Below, one piece after another: positions 16,924-40,273 of a stretch of DNA of 64,000 nt. The DNA is from Planctomycetota bacterium (GTDB lineage: Bacteria > Planctomycetota > PLA2 > JAEUHO01). The stretch spans positions 1,312,001 through 1,376,000 of the forward strand of contig CBDCTJ010000007.1 in the NCBI GenBank assembly GCA_965222115.1. Reading direction: 5' to 3'. The translations under genes and the position numbers were made by a program. The notes beneath the pieces are model-generated. The model ran no database searches. It was not told where the DNA came from and worked only from the letters and a program-made list of their open reading frames with translations. How positions within the stretch are numbered: the first letter of the stretch is position 1; every line of letters begins with the position of its first letter.

Positions 16924-17041
16924 CGCTTTGGCCGAGTACACGCGATTCTTTCGCTGGCAAAGCCCCGTTCGCCCTTGGTCACGGCTCGCTCGGGAGTACC
17001 TTCACGGCGTGCGCCCTCGAATCGGGACGCCGGAGTTGTTC

Positions 17042-18892
17042 ATGGCCGCTGCCCTTTCATCCATTCGCAATGTTGCCGTCGTGGCGCACGTCGACCACGG
17101 CAAAACAACGCTCGTAGACAAGCTGCTCGTCACGGCGGGTGCAATCGCGGCCCTTCCAGAAGACGAATCGCTCGTCATGGACAACAACGCGCTCGAGGGC
17201 GAGCGCGGCATCACCATCTTCTCGAAGAACTGCGCGATTCACTATCGCGACACAAAGATCAATCTCATTGACACGCCGGGCCACGCTGATTTCGGCGGTG
17301 AAGTCGAGCGCGTGTTGCGCATGGCCGATGGCGTTCTTTTGTTGGTCGATGCCTACGAAGGTCCGCTGCCGCAAACGCGATTCGTCTTGCGCAAGGCGAT
17401 GGATGGCGGACTCAAACCGATCGTGGTCATCAACAAAGTGGATCGACGTGATGCGCGGCCCCAAGGCGTACTGAATCTCGTGTACGACCTCTTCATTGAA
17501 CTTGGCGCTGAAGATGATGATCTTGAGTTTCCGGTGCTTTACGCATCGGGCCGGCAAGGCATTTCCGGTCACGAGCCGGATCAATTGCAGCAAAATCTCC
17601 TGCCGATTCTCGATGGCATTCTCGAACACGTCCCACCGCCGCCCTGCGATCCGCAGGCGCCTATGGGTATGCCAGTTTGTGACGTCGTAGTCGATCGCTT
17701 CAAAGGACGTCTCGCTGTGGGTCGCGTGGAGAGCGGCACGGTGCGCGAAGGCCAGACACTCGTTCGCCTGACGTCAGACGGTGAAACGAAGGAACGACGC
17801 GCGGTAAAGCTCTTGACCTTCGAAGGCATGAAGCGCGTTGATGCCAAGTCTGCGATGGGCGGCGACATCGTTGTCATCTCTGGCTTGGAAGGCGTCGAGA
17901 TCGGCGACACGATTACCGATCCCGAGAATCCCGTGAAACCGTGGACGATGCGCGTGGAAGCGCCCACACTCACAATGGAGTTTCGTGTCAATGACTCGCC
18001 CGTGGCGGGTACCGAAGGTACCTACGTTACGTCGCGTCACATCAAAGAACGGTTGTCGCGCGCTGCACAGGAAGACGTGGCGCTTCAAGTGTTGCCGTCT
18101 AAAGAAGGCGATGCTGTGGAAGTGCGTGGACGCGGCATTTTGCATATCGGCATCTTGATTGAAACGTTACGGCGCGAAGGCTACGAGTTTGCTGTTGGGC
18201 GTCCCCAAGTGCTGATGAAGGAGACCGAGCGCGGGTTGGAAGAACCCATGGAAACCGTCCACGTGGAGGTGCCGCCCACCGACTCGGGCAAAGTAATCGA
18301 GATGATGGGCCGCCGCCGCGGTGAACTCATCGACATGAAGACGCAAGGGGATCTCACGTTTCTAGAGTTTGAGGCACCGTCGCGTGGACTGATCGGGCTG
18401 CGAACGCGTTTGCTGAGTGCTACGAAGGGGGAAGCGGTGCTTACGTCGGTGTTTAAGCGCTATTGCATTCACCGCGGCTCGATTCCACGACGGAGTTCGG
18501 GCAGTCAGGTGTCGAGTGAAACGGGTCAGGTGCGAGCCTACGCGCTCAATGGACTCACCGATCGCGGGCCCTTCTTTGTGGACGCGGGCGAGAATGTGTA
18601 TGAAGGCCAGATCACCGGCGAACATCGCCGCGACGAAGATGTACTGGTCAATCCATGCAAGCGGAAAAACCTCACCAATATGCGCTCATCGGGTGCCGAC
18701 GAGAAGGCCGACTACCCTCCGCCCGTCCGCAAGGGCATTGAAGAGTCGCTCGAGTTCATTGCCGAAGACGAGCTACTGGAAGTCACACCCCAGTCGCTAC
18801 GTATGCGCAAGCGACTTCTCAAAGAAGTCGATCGACGGAAGGAGCGCCGCCGCAAACGGAGCGAAGTCGAACGTTCCCGTTCCGGTTCGTAA
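17042..18892 (+). CDS. typA: Translational GTPase TypA/BipA
   Basis: AHVDHGKTTL, ERGITI, DTPGHADFGGEVER, NKVD, LRREGYE. Confidence 0.97.
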   Translation: MAAALSSIRNVAVVAHVDHGKTTLVDKLLVTAGAIAALPEDESLVMDNNALEGERGITIFSKNCAIHYRDTKINLIDTPGHADFGGEVERVLRMADGVLLLVDAYEGPLPQTRFVLRKAMDGGLKPIVVINKVDRRDARPQGVLNLVYDLFIELGAEDDDLEFPVLYASGRQGISGHEPDQLQQNLLPILDGILEHVPPPPCDPQAPMGMPVCDVVVDRFKGRLAVGRVESGTVREGQTLVRLTSDGETKERRAVKLLTFEGMKRVDAKSAMGGDIVVISGLEGVEIGDTITDPENPVKPWTMRVEAPTLTMEFRVNDSPVAGTEGTYVTSRHIKERLSRAAQEDVALQVLPSKEGDAVEVRGRGILHIGILIETLRREGYEFAVGRPQVLMKETERGLEEPMETVHVEVPPTDSGKVIEMMGRRRGELIDMKTQGDLTFLEFEAPSRGLIGLRTRLLSATKGEAVLTSVFKRYCIHRGSIPRRSSGSQVSSETGQVRAYALNGLTDRGPFFVDAGENVYEGQITGEHRRDEDVLVNPCKRKNLTNMRSSGADEKADYPPPVRKGIEESLEFIAEDELLEVTPQSLRMRKRLLKEVDRRKERRRKRSEVERSRSGS

Positions 18893-18902
18893 GGTCGACG
18901 CC

Positions 18903-20900
18903 TTACGCAAGATCCAGTACGCGCTTGTAAAACGCGGGTACGGCGTCGGGGTCATGCGTCATCAGTACGTGGCTTTCAAGCCAGTCGGGCGCGCGCTTCT
19001 GGTCCATCATGACGCTAAACTGCTTGCGCAACGCGCGCCAATAGGGGCCTTTCTTATGTTCACCGAAGAACACAAGCGGCGACAACTCGATTACACCTAG
19101 CTTCATGTCGGTGAGTGTGAGGCCCACTTCTTCCAGTGTGCCCACACCACCCGTAAAGAACAAATGGAAGCTGGCAATCTCAAACCATCGCTGGCGTGCC
19201 TGGCGACTTCGGCCTTGAAACGTTTGATAGAATTCCGCGACTTGATTGGTCTTCTGATCCACCGTTTCAATAAAGCTAGCGCCCACCAGCAAACCCCGCT
19301 CGCGCGCAATGTCGGTCGCTTGTTGCATGGCGCCGGGTCCACCACCGGTAATGATCGCAATGTCATCACCGAACATGGTGTGTAGATTCTCAATCAACCG
19401 TTCTACGCGATCCTGCGTCTTGACATTGAGCGGTTTGGACGAGCCATACGCCGCGAAAATGAGCGACTTGCGAAAGCGATCCACGTTCTGCGGTTCCATG
19501 AAGTAGCCGCGCAGACCACGGAATATGTGTCGTACGACGTGTCCGCGCTCGTCATTGCACCAATAGACTTCGACTTCGAGGCCTTCGTAGTCGGCCAGTC
19601 GACCGTGATCGCGCGCCGACAGGAAGCCGCCATGCTCGTAGGAGGCGCGTCGAAAGATGACTCGCTTGACCTTCTTGCGCACGGCCGCTGCGGAAATCTC
19701 GGCGTGTTCCACGAGATTGGGGAAGTAACCGAGGAGCAACGTGACGCCAGCGCCATCGGGCAGGTCGGCCAGCGCATTTGTGCCAAACGGGCCGCGGTAG
19801 GGGAGACGCAGGCGACCGGCGCGGTGTCGTGCGGTGCGATCGCCACCTTCCGATGGCTGTAGCGGTCGTTCCGGATGCTGCCACCACACCGCCGGGTCTT
19901 CGCCGTCCAGCATGGCGCCGATGTCATCAGTGATGGCCACCAACCGATGGCTGTATCGACCGGCTTCCTGATTGTTTTCCAATCGATCGAACAGCTTAGA
20001 CAGCGCCATGTACTCGGCCGTGGCGCCGCCACGCTGCGCCTGGACGGAACTGCTGGCGTCGTCCGCAAGATCCACACCCTGCCAGTAGTGGGTGCGCGGC
20101 GGCAATTCGGCGGCCCGGTAAAGCGCGGCGGATGCTGCCGGATTCACAATGCGATGATCGGTGGAGTTATGAAACTCCAAGAATATGTTGGTGCCGCGTG
20201 TCGTGATGGGGTCCAGCACCACGGCTTCGAGATGTTGACCCAAGGGTGTGGCGTCACTTTCCAAGACGACGTAGTGTTTGTGTAAGAACATGGAGCACGA
20301 CGTAATCACGCCGTCGCCTGGCGCCAGCACAATGCGGTCTACGGGGCGTCGAACTTGCAGTCGATTGAGCACGTCTTTGCCGTCTTCGCGAACAGCAATC
20401 GTTGTGAGCACGTCCTTAGTCAGCGGTTCCAGCAAGTCATACACATGACCGTGAGGGCGAATACGAAAGTGCCCGCCGTGATCAATGGAATAGCTGGCTG
20501 GAAGTTGTAGCTCGTTGTCGAGAATCGCCTGGTCGATCTCCTCAGAACGCAGTCGACGCTCGGGCGGGCAAAACACAAGTCGCCCGGCGCGCAGTCCCGG
20601 TTGAATCACATGCTCCAGCAGCGGCGCCACGTTGTAGGCCGAGACCATGGCGTTCACGGTGACGGGCAATACGTAGTCTTCGCCGTCGAGCGTGGGTCGC
20701 GCATCATCGAGGGGGACAACGTTGATGCCGAGTCGCGCCAATCGACTTCGTGCCGCGAAACGAATGTGTTCCTCTTGCCCCAGCACCAGCTCCCGCATGG
20801 CCGCCGTGGAGGGAAACCCCACTTCGGCCGTAAACACGCCGTCGCTGGCGCGAGTCACACGCCGAATCCAACCGTCCGGTGTCTGGGGTGCGGTGAACAT
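18903..20900 (-). CDS. Long LOG-family protein (C-terminal LOG domain, large N-terminal region)
   Basis: ITGGGPGAM and GGVGTLEE motifs; AGGAG upstream of ATG 20900. Confidence 0.8.
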   Translation of the reverse strand: MFTAPQTPDGWIRRVTRASDGVFTAEVGFPSTAAMRELVLGQEEHIRFAARSRLARLGINVVPLDDARPTLDGEDYVLPVTVNAMVSAYNVAPLLEHVIQPGLRAGRLVFCPPERRLRSEEIDQAILDNELQLPASYSIDHGGHFRIRPHGHVYDLLEPLTKDVLTTIAVREDGKDVLNRLQVRRPVDRIVLAPGDGVITSCSMFLHKHYVVLESDATPLGQHLEAVVLDPITTRGTNIFLEFHNSTDHRIVNPAASAALYRAAELPPRTHYWQGVDLADDASSSVQAQRGGATAEYMALSKLFDRLENNQEAGRYSHRLVAITDDIGAMLDGEDPAVWWQHPERPLQPSEGGDRTARHRAGRLRLPYRGPFGTNALADLPDGAGVTLLLGYFPNLVEHAEISAAAVRKKVKRVIFRRASYEHGGFLSARDHGRLADYEGLEVEVYWCNDERGHVVRHIFRGLRGYFMEPQNVDRFRKSLIFAAYGSSKPLNVKTQDRVERLIENLHTMFGDDIAIITGGGPGAMQQATDIARERGLLVGASFIETVDQKTNQVAEFYQTFQGRSRQARQRWFEIASFHLFFTGGVGTLEEVGLTLTDMKLGVIELSPLVFFGEHKKGPYWRALRKQFSVMMDQKRAPDWLESHVLMTHDPDAVPAFYKRVLDLA

Positions 20901-21347
20901 GCTGCTAGGGGCTCCTGGAACATCGAAAGCGATCCCGCATGGGTGCATCGCTCGTTTCTCTCTGCGCGGGACGCTACCGCGAGGTAGCGCTGTGTGGGTC
21001 GGATTCGTGGGCCCGAATCGGCGACTCGTCAGCGGGTGATCCTAAGTCCATTCGATATAATAGTTTATGAAATAGTGTCGATTGGGGAACGGTCCGCGGA
21101 TGGCAGGCACTCGATGTGCGACGTGACTGTCGATCGCGTGCATTGCGCATCGCTACCACCCGCGCGTGGTGCCCCCGCTAGGATAAGCGTTCGCACCGTC
21201 GGGTACCTTGCCTGTAAGGGTCTGGTGCGAGAGTGAGCGCGCGAGTTTCGATGACGTAGAACTTGGTGGGTTAGGACAGATGAGTCGCCCACAGGTTGCG
21301 CCCATCTGTTTTCGGCCTGTCTATTCATACCTGGAGTTCAAATTCCT

Positions 21348-22766
21348 ATGAAGCCTATCCACGCAAAGACGTTCATGTCGTACGCGTTGGCAGTCTCGGC
21401 TGCCTTCCTCATGACGTTGGCTCCTCTCACTTCGTCATCCGTCGCTTCCGCCGAAGAGGGCGGCATCTTGGTGAAAGACGACGGTAGCGCCGAGAAGAAA
21501 GGCGATAAGCCTGCCAAGAGCAGTTCATCGACCGGCGCGGGCTCCGCACGCGATATCACCAATCGCCTCTTCGAACTGCTCCGACAAGATCACGGCACGC
21601 CCGATCTTTACATCAGCATTCTGATGGCCATTGGTATGCAACCAACAACCGCCGTGTCAGATCGTCAGCGCGAGGTGCTGCAGGACTGCGTTGTCAAGGG
21701 CAAGCTCTACGGTCGCAAGATGCAGGCGCTGGTGCGCAGCTACGCCTGCTTGGCATTGGGTCGCATTGGCAAGCATGCGCAGATCGGCGCTTTTGAGGGC
21801 ATTCTCTTCAGTCGTCGTGTAAAGAACAACAACATCAAGCGCTCGGCCGCTATTGGGCTCGGCTTGCTCGGCAAGTTGGCCAACGATGAAGAGCGCGTCA
21901 AGATCGCCAAGACGTTGCTCAAAGCCATTGACAAGGGCAAGTTGAAAGACGCCAGTGCGCAGAACTTTGCGTTCATTAGCCTTGCGTACTTGATTCTCTA
22001 CGACGTCCAGGCGGGTAAGACGGCTGTTATCAGTGACACCAAGGCCGACGAGACATTGCTCAAGGTCACCGTTGATGGCCGCCTCACACAGAAGCCCTAC
22101 GGCGCGTTGTCCCTCGCATTGATCAGCCGTGAGATTGGCGATACCACGTCCATCAAGAAGCTCGGCGACTTCCGCTCAAAAGCGCTTGAGACCATTCGCA
22201 ACAGTTTCCGTAGTGGTAAGGGCCTCGATTCCCATGCCCGTGCAGGCTTTGCCGTGTCGCTTGGTATTGCCAAAGACACGCTGGTCGTGAAGGAACTCAC
22301 TAAGGTGCTTTCCGATCGCAAGGCCGACCCCTTCTTGCGCGCCTATTGCGCACTTGGGCTTGGGCTCATCGGCATTGGCACCAACGAGGTCAAGGTCGCC
22401 ATTCGCGAAGCGCTCAAGGATCGCCGGTCGAAGGACCTTCGCCAGCAGGCGGCCGTTGCGTTGGGTCTACTCCAAGACCAAGAAGCCGTGCCGCTCCTGC
22501 TGAAGGAACTCGACAAGGCCAAGACGCAGGCGCAAAAGGGTCTCGTGATTCTGGCGCTCGCCAAGGTCGGTGACGCGCGCTCCGTGGCGCCGCTCATCAA
22601 GCGCATCAAAAATCCGCGTGAAAAGGATCTCACCCGTGCGCTCTGCGTGGCGGGCCTCGGTGTGATTGGCGACCTTGAGTGGATTCCTTCACTCTCGCGC
22701 ATCAGCGAGAACGTGAACTACCGCGCTTCCACCGACGTCATGCGAGAGGTGCTGTCGATTATCTAA
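21348..22766 (+). CDS. Exported HEAT-repeat protein
   Basis: Signal peptide; repeated R..AA.ALG.IG units; GGAG RBS. Confidence 0.85.
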   Translation: MKPIHAKTFMSYALAVSAAFLMTLAPLTSSSVASAEEGGILVKDDGSAEKKGDKPAKSSSSTGAGSARDITNRLFELLRQDHGTPDLYISILMAIGMQPTTAVSDRQREVLQDCVVKGKLYGRKMQALVRSYACLALGRIGKHAQIGAFEGILFSRRVKNNNIKRSAAIGLGLLGKLANDEERVKIAKTLLKAIDKGKLKDASAQNFAFISLAYLILYDVQAGKTAVISDTKADETLLKVTVDGRLTQKPYGALSLALISREIGDTTSIKKLGDFRSKALETIRNSFRSGKGLDSHARAGFAVSLGIAKDTLVVKELTKVLSDRKADPFLRAYCALGLGLIGIGTNEVKVAIREALKDRRSKDLRQQAAVALGLLQDQEAVPLLLKELDKAKTQAQKGLVILALAKVGDARSVAPLIKRIKNPREKDLTRALCVAGLGVIGDLEWIPSLSRISENVNYRASTDVMREVLSII

Positions 22767-22795
22767 ATCGACTCACCCAAGTACGTTCATCTGGT

Positions 22796-22836
22796 CACGC
22801 GCGAATCCGATTGGGTTTGCGCGTGTTTCGTTTTTC
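22796..22836 (+). terminator. Intrinsic terminator
   Basis: CACGCGCGAATCC/GGGTTTGCGCGTG stem followed by TTTCGTTTTT. Confidence 0.75.
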
Positions 22837-22855
22837 GGATTGATGCACGGTATAA

Positions 22856-23061
22856 GCTGCGGTCGATCTCACGCAGAGGCGCTGAGCGAAAGAGGCGCAG
22901 TGGGCGACATGTCACGTTGGTAGTTGGCTGGTGCTTGAACGCTCCACTTCGCTATGTGAGCACCGCGCCTCCGCGAACTCCGCGTGAGATTGGATACCTA
23001 CGACGAGACAGCAAGCGCTCACACTCCACGCGAAGTTGTCAAATAGTGTGGATTGGTTCCT
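22856..23061 (+). repeat. Palindromic intergenic repeat, copy 1
   Basis: 135-bp core 22856-22990 differs from 29603-29737 at 3 positions; arms TCTCACGCAGAG...CTCCGCGTGAGA. Confidence 0.95.
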
Positions 23062-23077
23062 ATGCTAAGATGACGGC

Positions 23078-23332
23078 ATGGCGATCAAGTACAAACCGCC
23101 AAGCGCCAACGGCTACTTCGGTATCGGTACCAAGCCCGCGCACAAGCCTTGGCAACCTCCCGTTACGCGCGACTACACCGTCCGCCGCGAAGTCCCCGCC
23201 GCCTTTCGATCCCTTCGCTTGCGACGCGGCAAGCGATCTGCCGTGGTCACTAACGGCTGGCTTACGAATGTCGCCGTCACCCTGGTCGCGTTGGCGTTTG
23301 TCGTCTCGGTAGCCAAGTTGTTGGGGATGTGA
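23078..23332 (+). CDS. Small basic protein with C-terminal TM helix
   Basis: 84-aa ORF filling the gap after the repeat; hydrophobic C-terminus. Confidence 0.5.
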   Translation: MAIKYKPPSANGYFGIGTKPAHKPWQPPVTRDYTVRREVPAAFRSLRLRRGKRSAVVTNGWLTNVAVTLVALAFVVSVAKLLGM

Positions 23333-23397
23333 GGCCGTACGCGTTACGGAATCTAACAAATCCGGCCCTCGAAACCCTCCGGGCGGTGTCTTGACTC

Positions 23398-25638
23398 ATG
23401 ACCACGATGAGCAACGAACCCATCCCCATTGAGCGCGCTCGAGAACGTGCGCGTCGACTTGCCTTGGCCCTTGTGTCAGATCGAGACGTGGCCGAAGACA
23501 TTGCCCAGGACGCCGCGCTTCGGATTGTGCAAGGACGCTTGCAGGCAAGTGAGTCGTATCGAGGTTTGCTCGCCACGACCGTTCGCCGTCTGGTCATCAA
23601 TCGTTGGCGGAGCAAACACAGGCGTAGACACCATGAGACGTCCGCGGTGGACGGTCGTCGATCGATTGCGGCGACGGACGATCTTGCGGCCATGGCCGAA
23701 ATGCAGGCAACGTTGTGGACCCTCGTGCGCGAACTTCCCGAGCCGTACGGTTCCACGTTGTTGCTGCGATTCCTTGAGGGGCTTCCGCCTCGACGTATTG
23801 CAAAGAATCGTAGTGTCCCTGTCGAAACCGTGAAGAGTCAACTGAAGCGTGGACTACGCATGCTTCGTGTGCGCATGGATCGGCAATACGGTGGGCGCCG
23901 AGAGCTCTGGATGACAGGGCTCCTGCCGTTGTTACGGCACCCACCGACAGGGGTGCTCCTAGGAACGCGCTCTCTTATGCGCACAGGAGGCGCAGTGATG
24001 AAGAAATCCACGATGGCCCGTCTGGCGATTCTCCTTCCGCTTCTTCTTGCGACTGGTGGTGTTGTTCTTTGGGCGACGGGCGCGTTCGAAGGAGAGGACG
24101 AGACATCGTCACCCAAGCATCAAGCGAAGGCCGTCGATGCGGACCGTGGTAATCGTGAGATTTTTACCGACGAGGGAGGACTTGCACGTACTTCGAATCC
24201 TACACTCCGCGCAAGTCCGATTGCACCGAACGAGATTCAACCTGCGTCGCCAACGTCAGATCCCCTGGAGACCAAGGAAGACAAGGCTTTGGCGGATACG
24301 GAATCCGAGCAGGCATACACCATCGAAGGCATCGCCACATTGCGTGGTTCAGCGGATGTTGTTACGCAAGGCGTCGTGGTCGCAGTCGCGAACGTGATTA
24401 GTCCCAACGCGCGTACCGGTGAATTTCGAAGGACGCAAAAAACGTGGCGCAGCGAGATAGACAGCAAGGGTCATTTTTGTATCCGGGTTTCCGGATCGCC
24501 CCTGCCCCGCGTTTCCCGTCTCACGTATGAAGGTCGAGATCACCACCTCGTATCGTGGAAACTCGACAAACCCGGCACGCCGCAGCGCGAGCAACTTGGC
24601 CCGATTTGGAACTCGGCCATGGTCATTACGCACGAGGCCGGTCACATCAACCGCGTCAAGCTCAATTTAGCGCCAAGCTTTCGGCTACGGGGCTTTGTGA
24701 CGGATGAAGATGGAGTCCGCTTGGGCGGCGCAAAGATCCAGTTTGGCGTTCCGCACGGAACGCCCAGGCGGCGAGCCGTATTTGGCCAGCGGGAGGTGAC
24801 GGGCGTCGAAGGTAGGTTTGACATAGGGCCCTTTCTCGCTAGCGGTGAAGGCAACGTCATCGCAGGCGTCACGATAACGAAGGATGGGTACGCAACGGCG
24901 AAGCTCGATCCATGGTCGCTTGAGCGCCACGAACGCGACAATGTACGAGTGGTCATGTCGCGAGGTGCAACGCTTGAAGGCCATGTACTAAGTCCCAGCA
25001 ACGAGCCCCTCCAGGGCGTAGTGGTCGAAGTAGAGTTTGGCGATTATCAACGTCGCGTTGCTACGCGAACCGATGCAAGCGGACGGTTCCGACTCGAACG
25101 CGTAAGCTACGGAAGAGCAACTCTGCGCGCACGTGCATTTCAGTACGGCGCCATCTACGAAGCAGAAAGAGATATTGAACAAGACGAGCTTGAGCTAGAT
25201 CTGAAGACGGAACCGGTTTTTATCGCTCCCGAAGACAAGCAGATTGTTGTACTCGGGTTGACCCTTGTTGACGTAGACGAACGCATTCGGAAGGCATACC
25301 GTCTACCGAAGCAAGTAACCGTTGCGATCGTCGCGTGCGACGAAACGCACAAGCGTCTCGGGGTAGGCACGTTGGAGCCGGGGTATGGCCTCTGGATGGT
25401 GGGAGACACGGCCGTGAGCAACACGAAAGATCTAATAGAGCGCATACTAAGGCACTACCAGAAACTCAATTCGCGTTCCTCGTCTGGGGAGGTAGCGCGC
25501 GATCCCGGGCTACGAACCGTCTACACATTCGCCAACGAGCGGATGTCCGGATCCAGTACACAGCACTTGCGTCTGTCGGCCGATCATCAGCAGGAAGTCG
25601 AGAACCTCGCGCGCCGGATGGGCATCGAGTCCGAGTGA
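23398..25638 (+). CDS. ECF sigma factor fused to TM helix and extracytoplasmic carboxypeptidase-regulatory-like domains
   Basis: AEDIAQDA (region 2), LPEPY..LLLRFLEGL...ETVKSQLKRG (region 4), TM, G.V....G.PL.G..V / TDASGRF repeats. Confidence 0.88.
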   Translation: MTTMSNEPIPIERARERARRLALALVSDRDVAEDIAQDAALRIVQGRLQASESYRGLLATTVRRLVINRWRSKHRRRHHETSAVDGRRSIAATDDLAAMAEMQATLWTLVRELPEPYGSTLLLRFLEGLPPRRIAKNRSVPVETVKSQLKRGLRMLRVRMDRQYGGRRELWMTGLLPLLRHPPTGVLLGTRSLMRTGGAVMKKSTMARLAILLPLLLATGGVVLWATGAFEGEDETSSPKHQAKAVDADRGNREIFTDEGGLARTSNPTLRASPIAPNEIQPASPTSDPLETKEDKALADTESEQAYTIEGIATLRGSADVVTQGVVVAVANVISPNARTGEFRRTQKTWRSEIDSKGHFCIRVSGSPLPRVSRLTYEGRDHHLVSWKLDKPGTPQREQLGPIWNSAMVITHEAGHINRVKLNLAPSFRLRGFVTDEDGVRLGGAKIQFGVPHGTPRRRAVFGQREVTGVEGRFDIGPFLASGEGNVIAGVTITKDGYATAKLDPWSLERHERDNVRVVMSRGATLEGHVLSPSNEPLQGVVVEVEFGDYQRRVATRTDASGRFRLERVSYGRATLRARAFQYGAIYEAERDIEQDELELDLKTEPVFIAPEDKQIVVLGLTLVDVDERIRKAYRLPKQVTVAIVACDETHKRLGVGTLEPGYGLWMVGDTAVSNTKDLIERILRHYQKLNSRSSSGEVARDPGLRTVYTFANERMSGSSTQHLRLSADHQQEVENLARRMGIESE

Positions 25639-25644
25639 GTTTTA

Positions 25645-25852
25645 CGGTCGACCTCACGCAGGGGCGCTGAGCGACGAGGCGCAGTGGGCAACTTGTCACG
25701 TTGGTAGTCGGCTGATGCTAGAACGCTCCACTCCGATGTGAGAGCACCGCGTCTCCGCATCACTGCGTCACGGCGTGAAATGAGTTGTGTGCGCGTACCG
25801 CAACCTCGTTCACACCCCACGCAACGTACCTGAAAAGTGTGGATTTTTCCCT
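25645..25852 (+). repeat. Palindromic intergenic repeat, copy 2 (more diverged)
   Basis: CTCACGCAGGGGCGCTGAGCGACGAGGCGCAGTGGGC...GTCACGTTGGTAGT...GAACGCTCCACT; tail AGTGTGGATT shared with copy 1. Confidence 0.9.
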
Positions 25853-25879
25853 GACACCATATGACTCTTGTGAGCGTCC

Positions 25880-28800
25880 ATGCGCGTCATCGTCATTGCC
25901 ACCGTACTGTTCCTCGTGCTTGTAATGTCAATCGCCTCGGCACGCGAGCCCGATTCAGAGAATGCAAGTACTTGCAGTCTGACTGTAAACGTGTTCCTCA
26001 ATGCGTCGAGAAGCAAGGGGCGCGTGTCCATCTGGAGCGAAGCAGCGTTTCCAACTGCACTGATCGACTGTCACCCTAGCACGGTTCCACCACTTCGCTC
26101 GCAAGTCACTCAAGAAGGACATCGAGTCAAGTTCAGTGGGCTCGCCGTGGGTGCGTACATGCTTGCGGCTGACATTGAAGGCTATCCACGCACCTATTTA
26201 CCTGTGCGTCTGCTAGCCTCGGGCAATCAAGTAGACGTTGATCTTACCGTTCGAGGTGGAAGTCATGAGTTTCGTGGCCGCGTCGTTTGGGGCGATGGCA
26301 AATCGTTCCAAGGCGTGGTACATGCAACGCTACGGTCAACGTGCCATACACCCGCAGAGAGTTCGTTCAGCCATTGCATGGCCGAAACCAATGAAGAGGG
26401 GGCGTTTCGGTTCGCTGGACTTGCTGCAGATCGTTACCTCGTCAGTGTGACTGCGCCGGGTCGATTCTTATCAAGCCATTCTTGGTCGATCATGATGCCT
26501 CCACCAGCGGATATGACACTGATTGCCGATGAAGGCATTGTGCGCCGCAACGTCGTCGTGGTGGATCACAAGAGCCAGCGCCCGATTCCCAACGTAGCCG
26601 TTTCTTCCACGAGTTGGCAGGGGACTCAAAGCCAGCACGCGACTGATAAAGAGGGGCGTGTATGGGTTCGTGGTGGATCGACGTTCACATTTGCCGCAAA
26701 GGGATACGCCACGTTGAGGCGAGAACTAGATGAGTTCGAAGAACCGCTTCGGGTCGCGATGGAACGAGGAGCTTCTGTACGTGGCGTTATATCGATAGAG
26801 GGCGCTGAGAGGCCTGGCCTCGAAGTCACTGTGGCCGCCATGCGAGTTCATCAGGGGGATCCCACTGAGGACGTTCACGTTACTGTGGCGAACGAAAAGG
26901 GGGAGTACAGCATCGAGGGCCTCAAGCCAGGTCGGTGGTTGATCGCAGCCATTGGAAGGAGATGGGCGAGCGTTGATGGAGGCATCGCAACGGTTGAAGG
27001 GCTACGTGATGCGGCCATTGTGTTGGAATCTGATGCGACGACGGAGCACCGCATTCACATGCGGCGTACCCTCGCGATGCACGTCAACGTACGCGATCCA
27101 AGCGGCCACCCTGTCTCGCGTGTTCGCGTCGCGGCCGTGCCTGAACAACAACTCAGGCGATTTGCTCCATTCCTCTTTCATGAGCAGCTGCGTCCGCACT
27201 TGACTGGGCAGACCAACAAGGAGGGGCGCGCCCACTTAGACACAATCCTTCCGGGCATGAACTATGTGGTTATGGCGGAGTCCGCGGACTGCAGCATGCG
27301 AACACTCAATGTCGCCAAGCCGAAAAAGGACAGGCCGCTTGTTGTCAACGTGACATTGCCGCCGCTTCGATCCATGGATGTGCTGGTGCTTGACGACAAG
27401 ACTGGACGGCCCATTCCTAGTGCCTACGTCACCGTTCGAGACGACCTGAACGTCGGTCTCGCGTGTTGGCTTACCAACCAAGCGGGGAGTGCTTCTCTTT
27501 GTTATCGCTCGAATACGCCGCTTCGAGTGGATTGTGAAAAAATTGGGTATATGGAACTGGATTCGCCCGTCACTTCCGATCCAAATGGCATGGCGACGAT
27601 TCGTCTGAAACGAAGTCTCTCGATATCGGGCGTCGTGCGTTGTCCCGAAGAAGTGAAGGGCGTCGTTGCACGGGTAAAGACCGAAACAGATTCGCCAGGT
27701 CACTTCTTCTTACGCGGGAAGACTGCGTTCGATTGTGCGCCCGCGGGGAATCGATTCGTGCTTCGCAATCTCTCTCGCGGGGTTCATCGAATGTCTGCCC
27801 AACTCAAATGGAAGGGCACTACGTTTCGCGGCACCGCGACGGCCGAAGCTGGACGCACGGATGTGGAGATTCTCCTCAAGCCGTTTCAGGTTCCGAAGCC
27901 GATTCAAGTCAGTGTTGTCGACCCCGATAGGAAACCCGTTGTTCGGGCAAAGGCGCTTCTATTCGTTGAAGGAATAGCAATGCACCGGGCACCTCGCCAA
28001 CTCACTGTGAGAGATGGCCGGCTTCGATTCGCAGTACCCAACGGTGCTACGAGGCTTGCCATTGAGATCTACGGTGCAACGGATGAGAAAAGGAACGCCC
28101 TTGGCCTAGGACCACGTGAGGTGGGTCCAATTCCGCCCAGTGCGTTTCCGAAGTTGATTACGCTTCCCGAGGGGCGACGCATCGAAGGTCGTATTGTTGA
28201 CGCGTCGGGTCGCCCTGTTGCGAATGCGCAAATCATCGCTCGGCCTAGACGTTCGTTCGAGGCACGTCGGCCCGAGCAGGCAGCCGATGCGCTATTTCGT
28301 TTTGGCGCGTCCGGCCCCAGTCATGCGAATGCGCGTTCCAACGATCGCGGAGAGTTTGTGCTTGTTGGCCTCGGAAATAAACCCTACCAATTGGATGTCA
28401 ATCCTCCCAAGGGCTTTGCGCATCCGGAGCCAGTGCCGGCCGTGTTGCCCGGCTATTCACCGCAGCGGATAGTACTCGTGTCCGCACCTACGGTCACGAT
28501 TGGGGTTGTTGACAGGAGTGGGCAACCACTCGCCGGTGCGCGCGTACTTCTTTGGTGGAAAACAAGCGAAGGGAAAGAACGGAATCATTCGTCCACGTTT
28601 GAATCAATGACGACCGACAGTAGCGGTTCGATTTCATTCTACGATTTACATCCCAAGAGACACTGTCGACTGCGTATTGATCCACCCGAAGATCGAGAAG
28701 ATCTTCAGGTGATTCGCGTAGACCAGTGGCTTCCAAGATCAAACGTATTCAGATTCAAGCGCTCCTATGAGATCGTGGGGCATGTGCGCGATCGGTCTGG

Positions 28801-29536
28801 AGAGCCCGTGGCGGGGATCCACGTTGGCATTCGAAAGGAGGCAGGTCACCTGAATCTTGTTACGACCGACGAGTCCGGAGAGTTTCGGTTTTCGGATCTC
28901 GACAAGAAGCGCTACAACATTCAAGTGAGCGACGACTTACACCGCAAACATGGGCACCTTCCTTCATTGTCGGTATTGGCGGGAATCACGGACGCAGTCC
29001 TTGAGATTGACAAACGACGTCTATTGAAGTTTCGGTACGTGCGTTCTGAGGTCGAGCGTGGTCCACCGGGAATCATGAAACAAGCCGAGCTCTGGACGGA
29101 AGACGGTGAACTCGTTGGCTCCATTGCGTTTCCGTTGGATGACGACGCTGTTCTGTTGGAACTCGAATCAAATGAATCCTACGCAGTCTTGGGCCGTGCT
29201 TCCTTCAGTGGTGCGCGCGTGTTCCGACGCGGAGTCAGGACGGGAGCGGATGTTATTGTTCTTCGAGAAGCGCGCAGCGGCACCATCCGAGGCTCGCTCG
29301 CCTTGTCGAAGGATCAGCGAATCGAGTCCGCCGAGGGATTTGCCACCTGTGGCGGTGCGAAGTTATCTGTCGACGTGAATACAAATGGGGCGTGGTCGAT
29401 CTCACACGTACCACCCGAATCGACGTGGCACGTCACCATAACGGGTCTCGTTTCGGGGCGACATGTTTTCGCTTCTGGGCGTGTTGAACTAGGAAAACCG
29501 CCCACGAATCGATGGCCCGTCACGCGGAAGAAATGA
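25880..29536 (+). CDS. Large exported protein with tandem carboxypeptidase-regulatory-like beta domains
   Basis: Signal peptide; many GRIVDASGRPVANA / TDESGEFRF repeats. Confidence 0.85.
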   Translation: MRVIVIATVLFLVLVMSIASAREPDSENASTCSLTVNVFLNASRSKGRVSIWSEAAFPTALIDCHPSTVPPLRSQVTQEGHRVKFSGLAVGAYMLAADIEGYPRTYLPVRLLASGNQVDVDLTVRGGSHEFRGRVVWGDGKSFQGVVHATLRSTCHTPAESSFSHCMAETNEEGAFRFAGLAADRYLVSVTAPGRFLSSHSWSIMMPPPADMTLIADEGIVRRNVVVVDHKSQRPIPNVAVSSTSWQGTQSQHATDKEGRVWVRGGSTFTFAAKGYATLRRELDEFEEPLRVAMERGASVRGVISIEGAERPGLEVTVAAMRVHQGDPTEDVHVTVANEKGEYSIEGLKPGRWLIAAIGRRWASVDGGIATVEGLRDAAIVLESDATTEHRIHMRRTLAMHVNVRDPSGHPVSRVRVAAVPEQQLRRFAPFLFHEQLRPHLTGQTNKEGRAHLDTILPGMNYVVMAESADCSMRTLNVAKPKKDRPLVVNVTLPPLRSMDVLVLDDKTGRPIPSAYVTVRDDLNVGLACWLTNQAGSASLCYRSNTPLRVDCEKIGYMELDSPVTSDPNGMATIRLKRSLSISGVVRCPEEVKGVVARVKTETDSPGHFFLRGKTAFDCAPAGNRFVLRNLSRGVHRMSAQLKWKGTTFRGTATAEAGRTDVEILLKPFQVPKPIQVSVVDPDRKPVVRAKALLFVEGIAMHRAPRQLTVRDGRLRFAVPNGATRLAIEIYGATDEKRNALGLGPREVGPIPPSAFPKLITLPEGRRIEGRIVDASGRPVANAQIIARPRRSFEARRPEQAADALFRFGASGPSHANARSNDRGEFVLVGLGNKPYQLDVNPPKGFAHPEPVPAVLPGYSPQRIVLVSAPTVTIGVVDRSGQPLAGARVLLWWKTSEGKERNHSSTFESMTTDSSGSISFYDLHPKRHCRLRIDPPEDREDLQVIRVDQWLPRSNVFRFKRSYEIVGHVRDRSGEPVAGIHVGIRKEAGHLNLVTTDESGEFRFSDLDKKRYNIQVSDDLHRKHGHLPSLSVLAGITDAVLEIDKRRLLKFRYVRSEVERGPPGIMKQAELWTEDGELVGSIAFPLDDDAVLLELESNESYAVLGRASFSGARVFRRGVRTGADVIVLREARSGTIRGSLALSKDQRIESAEGFATCGGAKLSVDVNTNGAWSISHVPPESTWHVTITGLVSGRHVFASGRVELGKPPTNRWPVTRKK

Positions 29537-29602
29537 TCTCGCGCGCACACTTTCGTTGGACCTTCAAAGCGCGCGCATCGTTTTTGGATAGAACACGATA
29601 CG

Positions 29603-29784
29603 GCTGCGGTCGATTTCACGCAGAGGCGCTGAGCGAAAGAGGCGCAGTGGGCGACATGTCACGTTGGTAGTTGGCTGGTGCTTGAACGCTCCACTTCGCT
29701 ATGAGAGCACTGCGCCTCCGCGAACTCCGCGTGAGATCGATCTCCTACGACGAAACAGCAAGCGCACACGCTGCACGCAAAGTT
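29603..29784 (+). repeat. Palindromic intergenic repeat, copy 3
   Basis: Near-identical to copy 1 at offset 6747 bp. Confidence 0.95.
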
Positions 29785-29807
29785 CTTATGGAACGTAAAT
29801 TGTAGCG

Positions 29808-29993
29808 CTAAAGAACGCCCAACAACATCAATCCACCCGCGAGCACAACAAGCCCCGCAAGTAGAGCCCATGTACCACCGCGTCGCACCCCTTCGGCCAA
29901 CGCAAATACGCCCTGAATCGTGACCGCGAAACCGCAGAGTGCGACAACGGCGCCGAGGGAGCGGATTGCGATGGAGGTTGCCAGTGCCGTCAT
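29808..29993 (-). CDS. Small two-TM membrane protein
   Basis: ATGA overlap with the AI-2E stop; two hydrophobic segments. Confidence 0.6.
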   Translation of the reverse strand: MTALATSIAIRSLGAVVALCGFAVTIQGVFALAEGVRRGGTWALLAGLVVLAGGLMLLGVL

Positions 29994-31600
29994 GCTGTGG
30001 CTTCCTTCTTGCCAAAGAGCGCTTTGATCTTGGCCCATAGAGCACCAAAACTGCCGCCGTGGGCATCGGGGGGCTTCTTAGGCAGTCCTTCGATTTCGTG
30101 CAGATAGAAGAGGAAGCACGATTGAATGATGCTCATGGTGGGCACTGCGAGCAATGCACCCCACACACCGAACGAATGCTCCCCAGCGAGGAGCGCAAAG
30201 ATGATGATGACCGGATGCATGTGGGCGTTGCTGCCCATGATCAATGGATTGAGAAAGTTGGCTTCAATCAAATGAATGAACGCAATCCATGCGAGTGCCA
30301 ACACCCCGGTTGTGACGCTGTCGGTGGCCGCGATAAGCACAATCGGAATCGAGCTTGCGATGGTACCGAATACCGGAATGAGGCTCAATACGGCCGCAAT
30401 GGACGCCAGCATGACGGCGTAGGGGACTCCGAGTAGCAACAGCCCGAGATAGGTAAGTACACCATTGACGAGGCAGATAACAAGTTGCCCGCGAATTACG
30501 CCGGAAAGTCCGCGATCGATGTACTGGATTAGTGACTCGTAGGAGCGTTTGTATTTTTGAGGAGGCAGACTTGAGAAGAAGGAGGCGATCTCCTTGCGGT
30601 CCATCACGAGAAACGCTGTGATCATGAGAATCAGCAAGAATTCATAGAGCGATAGGACAATAGTTCCCGCGATCTTGACGGCGCTCTTGGCAACCTTGTT
30701 TGGCAAGTCCTCGCTATAGGCGGCGGCCTTGATTTGGATGAAGTTGCGCAGGTCGTTTGGCTCGAAATCTAGGTTGACCTTGCGCAAATTGGTGAGCAGC
30801 GGCCCCAGTAATTCTCGCTCGAAGAGCACTTCGGCGCCCTTGGCCGGTTCCCCGACGGACAACGAAATTTGGCGATCGCTCACGATCGAGCCATCGTCGT
30901 ACTTGGCAACCCCTGCTTCCAATGGATCAATGGAATCTTCCGCATCCTCCGGCGGCGGCAACGACGCATTGTCCTGTCCTGTTCGGTCGAGGATGACGGT
31001 GGCCTCGGTTTCACCGGGGGGGATGCGCACGTCATGGAGCGTGGTGTAGTTGCGCACCGAAGGTGTCAGTTCGCCTTGGCCCGGTCGCTTGGCTCGAATC
31101 GTTAGCTTGGTTCCGCGTGGCACCACAATGGTCTTGGTTCGGCGTTCGCGGACGGGTGTGGAGTCGCTGTCGCCTGACGTACTCAATGGTTGCGGCTCAT
31201 CCAGGCGAAATACGGCTCGTGCGCCGTGTTGTTTGAGCGCCCGCGAGAGCTTCGTGGCGCCCGTTCGAACTTCCGTGCCCGCCCGTGTGAGTCCCTTCCA
31301 CGCCAAAAACCCAAGTCCACCGATGACGAGCGTGTAGACCAAGACAATGATCGGCCCACGTGCCCATTTGATGCCAAACAGGCGGCTCTTCTTCACCCAC
31401 AGGACCACGGGCTCTACGAGATAGGCGAGAAAGATCGCCATGAGGAACGGAAACAGGACTTCCCGAAAGACGATGATCAGGAGCAGGAAGGCGCCCAGAA
31501 ATGTGAGCAGGATGAGGACGTTGGGGCGCCTACGCCGCGGCACATGACCGTCCGGGGGCACGCGCTCGTCGGGGGGCGGGGATGCATCTGCCTCACTCAT
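29990..31600 (-). CDS. AI-2E family transporter with large soluble insertion
   Basis: PFLMAIFLAYLVEPVV, RGQLVI, IPVFG, HPVIIIFALLAG, GALLAVP. Confidence 0.9.
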   Translation of the reverse strand: MSEADASPPPDERVPPDGHVPRRRRPNVLILLTFLGAFLLLIIVFREVLFPFLMAIFLAYLVEPVVLWVKKSRLFGIKWARGPIIVLVYTLVIGGLGFLAWKGLTRAGTEVRTGATKLSRALKQHGARAVFRLDEPQPLSTSGDSDSTPVRERRTKTIVVPRGTKLTIRAKRPGQGELTPSVRNYTTLHDVRIPPGETEATVILDRTGQDNASLPPPEDAEDSIDPLEAGVAKYDDGSIVSDRQISLSVGEPAKGAEVLFERELLGPLLTNLRKVNLDFEPNDLRNFIQIKAAAYSEDLPNKVAKSAVKIAGTIVLSLYEFLLILMITAFLVMDRKEIASFFSSLPPQKYKRSYESLIQYIDRGLSGVIRGQLVICLVNGVLTYLGLLLLGVPYAVMLASIAAVLSLIPVFGTIASSIPIVLIAATDSVTTGVLALAWIAFIHLIEANFLNPLIMGSNAHMHPVIIIFALLAGEHSFGVWGALLAVPTMSIIQSCFLFYLHEIEGLPKKPPDAHGGSFGALWAKIKALFGKKEATA

Positions 31601-39797: not shown

Positions 39798-40216
39798 CTT
39801 GGGACTCCGGTTGCTCTTGGTCTCCTTGGTGAGAGTCTTCCTATTCAAGGTTTGCCCCGTTTTCAGCGAATAAGCGACTCCGTCAATTGCATTCCCCAAC
39901 GCTTGCGCTTTGTTTCTTAGCGCCCCTTGTGTGAGCCTTTTCTTCTTTTCTTTTGAATTACCGTCCCGCTACAGGCGGTTTGCTTCCGCAATGCGTCGTC
40001 CATAAACATGCCGCTCTCTGCGTCTCCGCATCTCCGCGTCTCTGCGCCTCTGCGCGAATCGAGCTGCGAACGATTTCTCGATTCGTGATCACAGTCCAAA
40101 AAAGGTGTGAATATTGTCCTGGCACCGTGTCGCTTTCGGGCCGCTTCCTTCCGCAAGGCACCTTCCACCAAAATGCCGCCCACTGCGCCTCCGCCACTTA
40201 GCGCCCCTGTGTGAGC
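39798..40216 (-). repeat. Cluster of REP-like repeats (65-bp repeats B and C, two left arms of the palindromic family, CACCAAG units)
   Basis: 40173-40216 reverse complement GCTCACACAGGGGCGCTAAG..GAGGCGCAGTGGGCGGCAT matches arm of copies 1-3; direct repeat at 39916-39936; tandem CTCTGCG/CTCCGC units 40015-40056. Confidence 0.8.
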
Positions 40217-40273
40217 TGAACCGCCCACGTCTGGATCAATCCCGGCATTTGCACTGATTCTCCTCTATTCGCG

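Follow-up and report, generated by a model that had tools for sequence, protein, structure and literature searches.

The attC sites of integron cassettes carry the consensus cores RYYYAAC (R'') and GTTRRRY (R') at the ends of the palindrome, and clusters of attC sites without an integrase are designated CALINs. Neisserial intergenic mosaic elements (NIMEs) combine dRS3 repeats with RS elements. An account of these elements proposes that they boost recombination with incoming DNA and that genes flanked by such arrays are exchanged or inserted between conserved neighbours (PMC1797815). Correia elements are described as able to form promoters at their ends and to influence adjacent genes (PMC2649163, PMC1797815). 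REP, BIME and REPIN sequences are presented in one source as extragenic palindromes behind genes, found as singlets and inverted doublets with a very uneven abundance between related genomes, the REP unit measuring 20–40 bp (PMC3733652). The three palindromic repeats of a planctomycete chromosome described here are members of a genome-wide, modular, hairpin-forming intergenic repeat family and not a private array.

Repeat copies and gene layout of the locus

The window is the whole 64,000-nucleotide stretch that was analysed, taken from a Planctomycetota bacterium (assembly GCA_965222115.1). The features of the locus are the following.

21348..22766, plus strand: HEAT-repeat gene, 472 aa (Pfam HEAT_2, 5e-14), conserved left neighbour
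22796..22835, plus strand: terminator-like hairpin of 13 pairs with T-run after the HEAT gene (z −3.89)
22819..23061, plus strand: repeat copy 1 (arm 22856-22923 on plus, ~55-nt centre, arm 22955-23021 on minus)
22982-23061, minus strand: leader module ("tail") of copy 1 (leader HMM, E 2e-7)
23078..23332, plus strand: 84-aa ORF with hydrophobic C-terminus
23398..25638, plus strand: ECF sigma fusion, 746 aa, with sigma regions 2 and 4 followed by a long C-terminal part
25641..25876, plus strand: repeat copy 2 (arm 25645-25707 on plus, centre, decayed arm 25738-25811 on minus)
25773-25876, minus strand: leader module of copy 2 (leader HMM, E 9e-12)
25880..29536, plus strand: protein of 1218 aa; four CarboxypepD_reg domains, further matches Ig-like or macroglobulin-like
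29569..29808, plus strand: repeat copy 3 (arm 29600-29670 on plus, centre, arm 29703-29766 on minus)
29763-29808: diverged tail of copy 3, no leader HMM match at E ≤0.01
29808..30038, minus strand: 76-aa ORF, overlaps the AI-2E gene at that gene's 3' end
29990..31600, minus strand: AI-2E family transporter gene (Pfam, 1.1e-56), conserved right neighbour, convergent

Gene and domain calls agree with the predicted succession of HEAT gene, 84-aa ORF, ECF fusion, 1218-aa protein and convergent AI-2E gene. Orthologues of the HEAT gene are found in all 28 family genomes searched (43–56% identity) and those of the AI-2E gene in 24 of the 28. The ECF fusion, whose C-terminal part carries a CarboxypepD_reg domain, has no full-length match in any of the 28 genomes and no close paralogue in its own genome, where the best match (47%) covers only the sigma domain. 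The best paralogue of the 1218-aa protein is 24% identical, and neither the 84-aa nor the 76-aa ORF has a family match. With a G+C content of 0.54–0.60 the block is not an outlier relative to the genome mean of 0.587.

Repeat calls and BLAST agree that the three repeats are real and lie in the same orientation. The 135-nt core proposed for copies 1 and 3 is 98% identical by BLAST; the repeat call aligns 22856-23037 with 29603-29784 at 93% over 182 nt, and similarity between these copies reaches 219 nt at 89% (22819-23037 versus 29569-29784). An 83-nt centre occurs three times, at 22892-22974, 25676-25758 (88%) and 29639-29721 (98%), as does a 30-nt 5' arm, whose second occurrence starts at 25645, 7 nt past the stop codon of the 23398-25638 ORF. 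Each copy is a compact doublet of two family arms, one per strand, around a centre of ~55 nt. The downstream tail attributed to copies 1 and 2 is indeed shared (23016-23061 versus 25807-25852, 72%; only 61% for the tail of copy 3), but it is in fact the leader module of the family read on the minus strand. In these two copies the leader module sits 16–27 nt ahead of the next start codon and the repeat occupies the entire gap up to the next gene, so that any promoter for the genes behind them must sit inside the repeats.

Independent contigs of public runs extend over the repeats into unique flanks (21000-23439, 22927-29645, 24995-28776 and 28778-29802). An assembly artefact is unlikely because every repeat junction is crossed by separately assembled contigs, and no joints are reported.

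A genome-wide family of modular repeats

An HMM built from the three copies retrieved only these three as full copies, together with dozens of arm matches. The arm HMM gave 70 matches at E<1, of which 58 at E≤1e-4, and a sequence model likewise 58 in this genome. The family has at least 58 arms in this 90% complete genome; they are spread over four contigs and are mostly solitary. Two further arms lie within the window.

40000-40046 and 40166-40246, minus strand: family arms enclosing a leader module (40052-40154)

There are two arm types, each with its own leader, and the leader module also occurs without arms (43 leader HMM matches, many solitary). Arms measure 50–90 nt and the whole unit 135–240 nt, inverted arms being 100–330 nt apart. 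Arm spacing and module combinations vary among loci, with distinct modules mixed in intergenic DNA. Similarity tapers gradually at the element ends, and two copies abut a TAA stop codon at the same leader position. The genus is represented by this genome alone. Short-read assemblies are interrupted by the repeat family at these loci.

Among 28 same-family genomes the sequence model had no match in 25 and one weak match in each of three, and the 140-nt core matched in none of 40 relatives. A 15-nt pattern that occurs 22 times in this genome has a single match in one of the eight same-family genomes of a 250-genome phylum sample, and it is abundant (30 matches) in only one other of the 250. In these searches the expansion of the family is confined to this planctomycete lineage. 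The short arm motif is found in many phyla, as 3' hairpins. No description of the octamer-rich arm core was found in the searchable literature; recurrent across many phyla, it merits separate study.

The arms are placed non-randomly relative to genes, as called by a purpose-made simple ORF scorer: a co-oriented gene lies just upstream of 41 of the 58 (p 1.7e-4), within 130 nt in 36 cases; 26 are found in convergent gaps, which make up 347 of the 1832 gaps overall (p 9e-6), and four in divergent ones (475 of 1832; p 2.6e-4). Genes adjoining arms include housekeeping ones (aldolase, AccA, Rho and LexA).

Folding and expression signals

The description of the repeats as imperfect hairpins holds for copies 1 and 3, which fold as long hairpins (copy 1: z −3.35 on the minus and −0.83 on the plus strand; copy 3: z −3.83 and −3.00), but not for copy 2, which folds no better than its shuffles (z −0.42 and +0.46). 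No T-run is present behind the repeat hairpins. The descending arm and T-run of the terminator that follows the HEAT gene already lie within the similarity between copies 1 and 3, which begins at 22819. A sigma-70 consensus scan of 21000-31000 found no site, and no Rfam family matches the repeats.

Gene content around the repeats

Six relatives have in common the gene order w14224 - HEAT - w18903 - w16928 - AI-2E, with a pyruvate-kinase-like ORF adjoining the AI-2E gene. The block proteins have no match in these regions beyond two weak ones of the 1218-aa protein (E 1.5e-4 and 0.002), found elsewhere in the G001 region. The 6.7 kb block is lineage-specific, none of these six relatives having it at this locus. 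The idea of an insertion between two convergent genes stands insofar as the block is missing in the six relatives and lies at a rearranged site.

At nine hand-picked arm loci other than that of the window, eight of the nine arm gaps beside conserved genes coincide with synteny breaks, compared with 31 of 70 arm-free gaps (Fisher p 0.013), in a test against other genera where the background break rate is high (44%) and some breaks may reflect the 20-kb limit on the compared stretches. In this comparison the arms are associated with synteny breaks. The original prediction had placed the repeats at accessory-gene boundaries, which this enrichment bears out in part; the arms, however, also follow housekeeping genes and the family is dispersed. 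The Rho locus mirrors the window layout, with six extra genes subdivided by three arms between neighbours that are adjacent in four relatives. In the gap between an HtrA-like gene and LexA, whose flanking genes are adjacent in 5/5 relatives, the arm doublet is a plain insertion with the gene content unchanged. The AccA and RibBA loci have an arm on one side only of their extra genes, and arm-free extra genes exist too, for example five at C7:1038605-1043672.

Co-oriented neighbouring arms are unusually alike: same-orientation pairs no more than 10 kb apart are at least 70% alike in 10 of 13 cases, versus 50 of 1622 distant pairs (p 1.3e-7). The two arms of one doublet are of different types and resemble each other like random family members, none of 18 pairs being at least 70% alike. 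Cargo bracketed by alike arms includes a ParE/Phd toxin-antitoxin pair between two direct arms 86% alike, a Band_7 gene and a SASA esterase. Facing arms at C7:1715190-1719132 enclose genes without any Pfam match.

Search for recombinases

The window had been described as devoid of recombinase and transposase genes, and the two families searched, PF01797 and PF00589, match nothing there. Genome-wide, PF00589 has seven matches (XerC/XerD-like proteins, generic integrases and fragments), none by the arms in the window. No integron integrase was found among the five full-length ORFs scanned in this 90% complete genome; the best TIGR02249 scores (112 and 114 bits, cut-off 265) belong to proteins scoring as XerD/XerC. 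A regular-expression search of both strands found no RYYYAAC or GTTRRRY core site in any copy. The one clear Y1 transposase (Y1_Tnp) gene, C7:1411691-1412035, is flanked by an unrelated 15-nt palindrome present at those two places only, and a second, partial Y1_Tnp match (C7:1066506) has no arm within about 30 kb. A classic REPIN/RAYT system is not supported, the sole clear transposase gene being flanked by this different palindrome. What is kept of the REPIN/MITE idea is a REP/MITE-like family expanded in the lineage, but no RAYT gene flanked by the same repeats was found.

Origin of the block

The best reading, which we hold to be about evenly poised, is that of a non-autonomous REP/Correia/NIME-like family whose copies are recombination substrates. 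The family would settle or persist just behind gene 3' ends, and its copies would act as portable stretches of homology. With no dedicated recombinase recovered in the PF01797 and PF00589 searches, recombination would have to rely on the homologous machinery of the host. The block (84-aa ORF, ECF fusion and 1218-aa protein) may have arrived, or been reshuffled, at the rearranged site through recombination between repeats; the likeness of copies 1 to 3 may reflect such recombination or later gene conversion, and the block could be deleted or looped out between copies 1 and 3, which are direct repeats.

It is possible, though on balance unlikely, that the repeats are passive, selfish or neutral, and mark variable spots without causing gene gain. 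They would have multiplied through some copying process as yet unknown, or through duplication over short distances and gene conversion, being tolerated mainly at 3' ends and beside young dispensable DNA, and the three copies would be local ones homogenised by gene conversion. The local likeness of arms could stem from copying over short distances or from gene conversion, neither of which would involve the arms in gene movement. The LexA-locus doublet inside a fully conserved gap, the one-sided arms at AccA and RibBA, the extra genes without arms (C7:1038605-1043672) and the high background of breaks (31/70) fit passive repeats, and the lost hairpin of copy 2 is what decay without selection predicts. 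They would account less well for the enrichment of arms at breaks (8/9, p 0.013), for the co-oriented, locally alike arms that repeatedly enclose whole gene modules, and for the similarity of copies 1 and 3, which passes beyond the family modules into the terminator T-run and is thus easier to reconcile with segmental recombination than with a defined element that transposed.

More doubtful is a dispersed gene capture, independent of an integrase or driven by an unknown recombinase, in which palindromic repeats after gene ends would be portable docking sites. Modules made up of a repeat and one or more genes, whether circular or arriving from outside, would recombine there. This would leave accessory modules, such as the block that follows rho, the ParE/Phd pair and the ECF sigma/surface-protein pair, both bracketed and subdivided by co-oriented, locally alike repeats. 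On the scale of a whole chromosome, such capture would parallel integron cassettes, IS26 translocatable units or neisserial minimal mobile elements. Gene gain and movement are poorly documented in Planctomycetota. Repeats serving as landing pads without a nearby integrase would explain the lineage-specific sigma-factor and surface-protein genes between conserved neighbours, and would give a handle for locating variable loci in MAGs.

We consider improbable a genuine cassette system with site-specific recombination, akin to integron cassettes or CALINs but dispersed and without attC sites. In it, a recombinase encoded elsewhere or unassembled would insert circles, each carrying a repeat and one or more genes, into repeats already in place. 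The layout repeat - genes - repeat - gene - repeat in a single orientation, its recurrence at the Rho locus, the toxin-antitoxin pair between direct arms 86% alike, the position of the leader before the start codons behind copies 1 and 2, and the 90% completeness of the genome would all suit such a system. It is disfavoured by the missing integron integrase, with none of the seven tyrosine-recombinase matches by the arms in the window, by the absence of attC core motifs and by arms that are mostly solitary and behind housekeeping genes. Moreover, neither a conserved crossover point nor a sharp boundary of the cassettes could be made out, and the public-run contigs, which drop rare variants, hold no deletion or circle junction at the repeats. 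The integron-like array with non-attC sites first suggested is not supported, on the first three of these grounds and for the dispersal of the family.

Least probable is a functional cis-element or small RNA family, either a 3' hairpin that terminates transcription or stabilises mRNA or a leader module with an outward promoter, duplicated here because the ECF sigma operon would be regulated together with its target gene. The strong placement after stop codons, the stable minus-strand hairpins of copies 1 and 3 (z down to −3.8), the fact that any promoter for the genes behind copies 1 and 2 must sit within these copies, and the 3' hairpins of the short arm motif in many phyla speak for it. Against it, the fold of copy 2 is not significant, the hairpins lack a T-run behind them and the HEAT gene already has its own strong terminator, neither an Rfam match nor a sigma-70-like site (21000-31000) was found, and 28 same-family genomes manage without the element, which is thus not a conserved regulatory device.

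Comparison with known systems

The locus resembles integron arrays and CALINs in its same-orientation imperfect palindromes of ~60–140 nt after each gene or gene pair and in its accessory cargo, which at another locus includes a toxin-antitoxin pair. Co-oriented sites are grouped in threes both here and at the Rho locus. The family as a whole differs from integron arrays in being scattered over the chromosome, with most arms solitary and behind housekeeping genes. As in REP and REPIN families, the arms are extragenic, follow gene ends, form singlets and doublets and are unevenly distributed among related genomes, but they are longer (50–90 nt versus 20–40 bp).

In its size (135–240 nt), in the long, imperfectly inverted arms that flank a core, in its numerous intergenic copies and in its lineage-specific abundance the family resembles the Correia and ERIC MITEs; inverted arms, small size and a number of 58 arms are those of a MITE, and copies 1 and 2 directly precede start codons. 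Target-site duplication and sharp ends could not be defined, the two arms of a doublet differ in type, and searches of the genome with PF01797 and PF00589 yielded no insertion sequence that shares the element's ends and could be its parent.

NIMEs are unrelated in sequence and have a 20-bp dRS3 in place of arms of 50–90 nt; no phage recombinase is known to target the arms, natural transformation is not known for this organism, and the case for exchange comes solely from cross-genus comparisons. The family is nevertheless like NIMEs and minimal mobile elements in forming non-coding modular intergenic arrays beside variable, often surface-related genes, in combining arm, leader and centre variously and in having arms at gene-content breaks; several distinct modules in varying order within intergenic DNA are a trait it shares with BIMEs and NIMEs. 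Even the modest reading yields a new, well-delimited mosaic REP/MITE-like repeat outside Proteobacteria.

The locus and its assembly

The gene layout originally described around the repeats was borne out by Pfam searches of this part of the source genome (4.55 Mb in 7 contigs, 90% complete). Its features are as follows, the three repeat copies being in the same orientation:

21348-22766, HEAT-repeat protein (Pfam)
22819-23061, repeat copy 1
84-aa ORF, without a Pfam match
23398-25638, ECF sigma factor fused to a part with a CarboxypepD_reg domain, 746 aa (Pfam)
25641-25876, repeat copy 2
1218-aa protein with four CarboxypepD_reg domains (Pfam)
29569-29808, repeat copy 3
29990-31600, AI-2E transporter, convergent (Pfam)
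76-aa ORF overlapping the end of the AI-2E gene

The assembly was checked against contigs from four public sequencing runs of one study. Short-word assemblies of these runs break within copies 1 and 3; single contigs cover 21000-23439, 22927-29645, 24995-28776 and 28778-29802 with zero differences, and the layout is thus upheld by spanning contigs against the assembly artefact that had been envisaged. The public contigs, which cannot reveal rare forms, contain no joints, deletions or variants at the locus, nor were any of the excision junctions proposed for checking reported in them. One contig from run X3 contains copy 3 from 29613 on behind a different upstream sequence, and its 30-letter end is absent from the source genome; this contig could stem from a related strain with the repeat in different surroundings, or reflect an artefact of the assembly graph. 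Metagenome scans yielded no relative with the HEAT protein and, with a 20-nt pattern from the repeat centre, one chance match inside a coding region.

Three related repeat copies

Repeat calls align copies 1 and 3 over 182 nt (22856-23037 and 29603-29784; 93%). BLAST recovered the near-identical 135-nt core noticed earlier, in the same places and at 98%, and extended the likeness to 219 nt at 89% (22819-23037 and 29569-29784). An 83-nt centre occurs three times, its second copy at 25676-25758 (88%) and its third at 29639-29721 (98%), as does a 5′ arm of 30 nt within the window. Copy 2 is the diverged copy noted earlier, and it does start 7 nt past the stop of the 23398-25638 ORF. The downstream tail common to copies 1 and 2 was likewise found (23016-23061 and 25807-25852; 72%), that of copy 3 being 61% alike, so that the tail of copy 1 is closer to copy 2 than to copy 3.

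Each copy in the window is a compact doublet made of a plus-strand arm (the arm being the 50-90-nt unit of a wider family), a centre of ~55 nt and a minus-strand arm of the other of two arm types. The tail has been re-identified as the leader of the minus-strand arm, the module upstream of the arm, read backwards. On the minus strand a leader HMM matches copies 1 (E 2e-7) and 2 (E 9e-12), but it gives no match in copy 3. An ECF-type promoter in the leader, judged by eye, was discarded for its poor spacing fit.

The description of every core as an imperfect hairpin holds for copies 1 and 3 (minus-strand fold z-scores of −3.35 and −3.83, plus-strand ones of −0.83 and −3.00) but not for copy 2 (−0.42 and +0.46). 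The HEAT gene ends in a terminator (z −3.9), a stem of 13 pairs followed by a T-run. The likeness of copies 1 and 3 begins within this terminator and therefore exceeds the modules of the family; ahead of copy 3 the corresponding stretch forms a weak hairpin, likewise with a T-run. Such mosaic likeness among the three copies is the product expected of crossing-over or gene conversion between them. Gene duplication as the origin of the three copies was ruled out because the block genes have no close paralogue in the source genome, the best reaching 47% (sigma domain) and 24% (1218-aa protein).

A genome-wide family of arms and leaders

An HMM of the three cores finds full copies only at these sites, while its first ~50 positions match dozens of other places in the genome. 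An arm HMM built on 38 arms gave 70 matches at E<1 and 58 at E<=1e-4, and an independent sequence model of 21 arms likewise returned 58. The arm core starts with CTCACGCAGAG and holds two GCAGAGGCGC-like units; two arm types are distinguished by their upstream leaders. Since the leader module is also frequent without arms (43 HMM matches, 32 regex matches), the system is a mosaic of modules. The 26-nt motif ATACGGTGTACGGGCAAAATCCACAC and its variants form the outer part of the leader. Solitary occurrences are mostly downstream of co-oriented genes, and the motif clusters in two regions, e.g. C7:641845-669589 and C7:2273495-2284338 (C1, C5 and C7 are contigs of the source genome), one cluster region containing a broken integrase gene and the closest ECF paralogue.

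The arm HMM also detects two tandem minus-strand arms elsewhere in the window (40000-40246), with a leader module between them, and arms at C7:2474907-2476205; the tandem pair lies just upstream of the gene at 40274-41944. Four ORF-free stretches of ~750-900 nt (C1:96655-97550, C1:481300-482109, C7:2558540-2559286, C5:77201-78030) are mutually similar over several hundred bases, and each opens with a leader and arm directly after a stop codon. Rfam offered no match for the window at gathering level, none for copy 1 even at E<=10, and no meaningful one for nine further loci of the family. For such repeats in Planctomycetes, our literature search found nothing beyond Di Nocera 2013, on REPs in general.

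Distribution in other genomes

The arm family is expanded in this lineage. The genus consists of the source genome alone, and the relatives compared come from other genera. A 140-nt core matched in none of 40 relatives. Scoring 150 candidates per genome, the arm model found its 58 matches in the source genome; of 28 further genomes in the taxonomic family, three had one weak partial match each and 25 had none. A 15-nt arm pattern, present 22 times in the source genome (0 times when reversed as a control), occurred once in one of eight same-family genomes sampled; among 250 genomes of the phylum it was frequent only in one 12.3-Mb genome of another family (30 matches).

Many other genomes, however, carry the short two-unit arm motif. 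An exact-match pattern that fixed 25 positions (two of them to purines) located it in at least 113 stretches of a species-representative collection. By their record titles, those listed come from Planctomycetota, Sphingomonadales, Gemmatimonadota, Verrucomicrobiota, Kiritimatiellae, Acidobacteriota, Armatimonadota, Cyanobacteria, Anaerolineales, Treponema and others, with isolates of Erythrobacter, Porphyrobacter and Sphingomonas among the bearers. The widespread arm core consists of TCACGCAGAG followed by GCGCAGAG-like octamers, and among the listed matches the motif is often an octamer-repeat hairpin just 3′ of a stop codon. Judging by titles, a literature search with four motif strings found nothing related.

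Arms tend to lie behind genes and at synteny breaks

Placement counts depend on gene calls from a simple codon-usage ORF scorer (88% coding density), by which 56 of the 58 arms are intergenic. A co-oriented gene lies directly upstream of 41 (expected share 0.465, p 1.7e-4), in 36 cases with its stop at most 130 nt away. Convergent gaps hold 26 of the 58 arms vs. 347 of 1832 gaps (p 9e-6), divergent ones 4 vs. 475 of 1832 (p 2.6e-4). In a scan of 32 preceding proteins, 6 of them without a match, the genes preceding arms included housekeeping genes for class-I aldolase, AccA, RibBA, glutamate dehydrogenase, RuvX, Rho, LexA, AcrB and a SpoU methylase. For the family as a whole, this scatter behind core genes goes part of the way to refuting the original prediction.

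Synteny was assessed for arm gaps beside well-conserved genes, using orthologues in five relatives and up to 20 kb fetched around each. The arm gap marks the end of synteny at eight of nine informative loci (FBA, AccA, RibBA, Rho, GDH, M48 peptidase, SpoU, AcrB), and breaks occur in 31 of 70 armless gaps touching a syntenic gene (Fisher one-sided p 0.013), a comparison to be read with care as the analyst picked the loci, the relatives are only distantly related, breaks are common even in the background and the fetch limit produces some false ones. At the ninth locus (HtrA-like gene/LexA) a doublet sits inside a gap conserved in all five relatives. The Pirin and M3 peptidase loci were left out of the count because they share no neighbours with the relatives.

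Genes that adjoin each other in relatives are separated by two extra genes at the AccA and RibBA loci, and the Rho locus replicates the layout seen in the window. Six extra genes lie there between rho and a 1473-aa gene (C7:1713445-1727042), one with CarboxypepD_reg and the other five lacking any Pfam match at E<=1e-4, and the insert is split by three arm sites (1715190, 1718849/1719081, 1721106). In four relatives the 1473-aa gene is at most ~3 kb from the rho match, with nothing else matched between.

Arms of one orientation that lie close together resemble each other. Within 10 kb, identity reaches 70% or more in 10 of 13 same-orientation pairs, vs. 50 of 1622 distant pairs (Mann-Whitney p 1.3e-7) and none of 18 near pairs in opposite orientation. 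Direct pairs surround a Band_7 gene (247 nt, 84%) and the ParE/Phd (YefM) toxin-antitoxin pair of the Pirin locus (C7:1526058-1527302; 105 nt, 86%; a third arm follows on the opposite strand), and others flank a SASA esterase and Rho-locus genes. Accessory modules flanked by co-oriented, locally similar copies of this dispersed repeat are a genuine, recurrent feature.

The block occupies a rearranged site

Six relatives have the gene order w14224, HEAT, w18903, w16928, AI-2E and w31582 onward (genes named by their start in the window). Relative to them the source genome carries an inversion of a three-gene segment, 16928-22766, and the 6.7-kb block occupies the gap between the HEAT and AI-2E genes. 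Copies 1 and 3 thus mark the precise points of synteny loss, at the 3′ ends of these two conserved genes. The inverted segment comprises a 654-aa gene, a Lysine_decarbox/SLOG-like gene and the HEAT gene, and its left breakpoint is a 4-nt gap without a repeat. The 899-aa gene at 14224-16923 aligns over ~440 residues in four of five relatives and over 834 in the relative G001; it may have been fused or extended beside the breakpoint.

In the six relatives the block is missing from this locus, and w18903 and w16928 lie between HEAT and AI-2E. The relatives' gap beside AI-2E holds one ORF of ~470-600 aa, whose start in G001 reads by eye like pyruvate kinase and whose sole match in the source genome is 740 kb away. 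In the stretches fetched from relatives the block proteins have no counterpart, the one exception being the 1218-aa protein with two weak matches (E 1.5e-4 and 0.002) in another part of the stretch from G001, and no full-length match to the ECF fusion was found among 28 family genomes. The block is lineage-specific, at a rearranged site. Composition was also inspected for recent foreign origin and gave no signal, the G+C content being unremarkable.

Interpretation and alternative explanations

The repeats can be read as a non-autonomous, REP/Correia/NIME-like mosaic family that has multiplied in this lineage behind gene ends and serves as recombination substrate, a reading to which we give about an even chance. 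The role as substrate is proposed because many copies of 100-250 nt are 75-97% identical. Elements would lodge 3′ of genes and multiply; lineage-specific modules would then accumulate, be swapped or be rearranged at the repeats, and co-oriented copies flanking a module would remain or become alike. The block may accordingly have been brought here by recombination at repeats, copies 1 and 3 could loop it out, and the leader modules by the starts at 23078 and 25880 might influence expression.

That the family is a purely passive repeat is rather unlikely; against it stands the repeated bracketing of gene modules by locally alike, co-oriented arms.

True cassette insertion at specific sites by an undetected recombinase, to which the repeat-module-repeat layout lends itself, is improbable. 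As first noted, the window is devoid of a recombinase or transposase, as far as PF01797 and PF00589 are concerned. PF00589 has seven matches in the genome; of the five full-length ORFs scanned, two score as XerD/XerC, reaching 112-114 bits on the integron-integrase model vs. a cut-off of 265, and the rest are generic integrases. Neither attC core motif (RYYYAAC or GTTRRRY) is present in any of the three copies. PF01797 identifies one clear Y1 (IS200-like) transposase gene, 36 kb outside the window:

C7:1411546-1412224, Y1 transposase gene (150 aa) with flanking palindromes

These palindromes are an inverted pair of 15 nt, unlike the arms and present at those two places only, and the unit looks like a lone REPtron/TIRtron-like element. 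From the Rfam, PF01797, PF00589 and attC results it follows that this is not an integron, an attC-type CALIN or a RAYT-linked REP family. The integron-like capture array of the original prediction is therefore abandoned, and so is a RAYT-linked form of its alternative, a REPIN/MITE mobilizing cargo. The original interpretation is thus supported in part, and the recurrent bracketing of accessory modules stands.

A regulatory or terminator element, for which the position behind stop codons might speak and the weak folding of copy 2 does not, is about equally improbable.

Comparison with known systems

The closest functional analogue is found in Neisseria, where mosaic arrays of intergenic repeats are paired with minimal mobile elements and have been proposed to recombine with incoming DNA at the repeats (PMC1797815). 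Correia/ERIC-type MITEs (PMC2649163) are similar in form to the family units. REP/RAYT systems (PMC3733652) share the extragenic palindromic habit, but the present family differs from them in size and in the link to a transposase.
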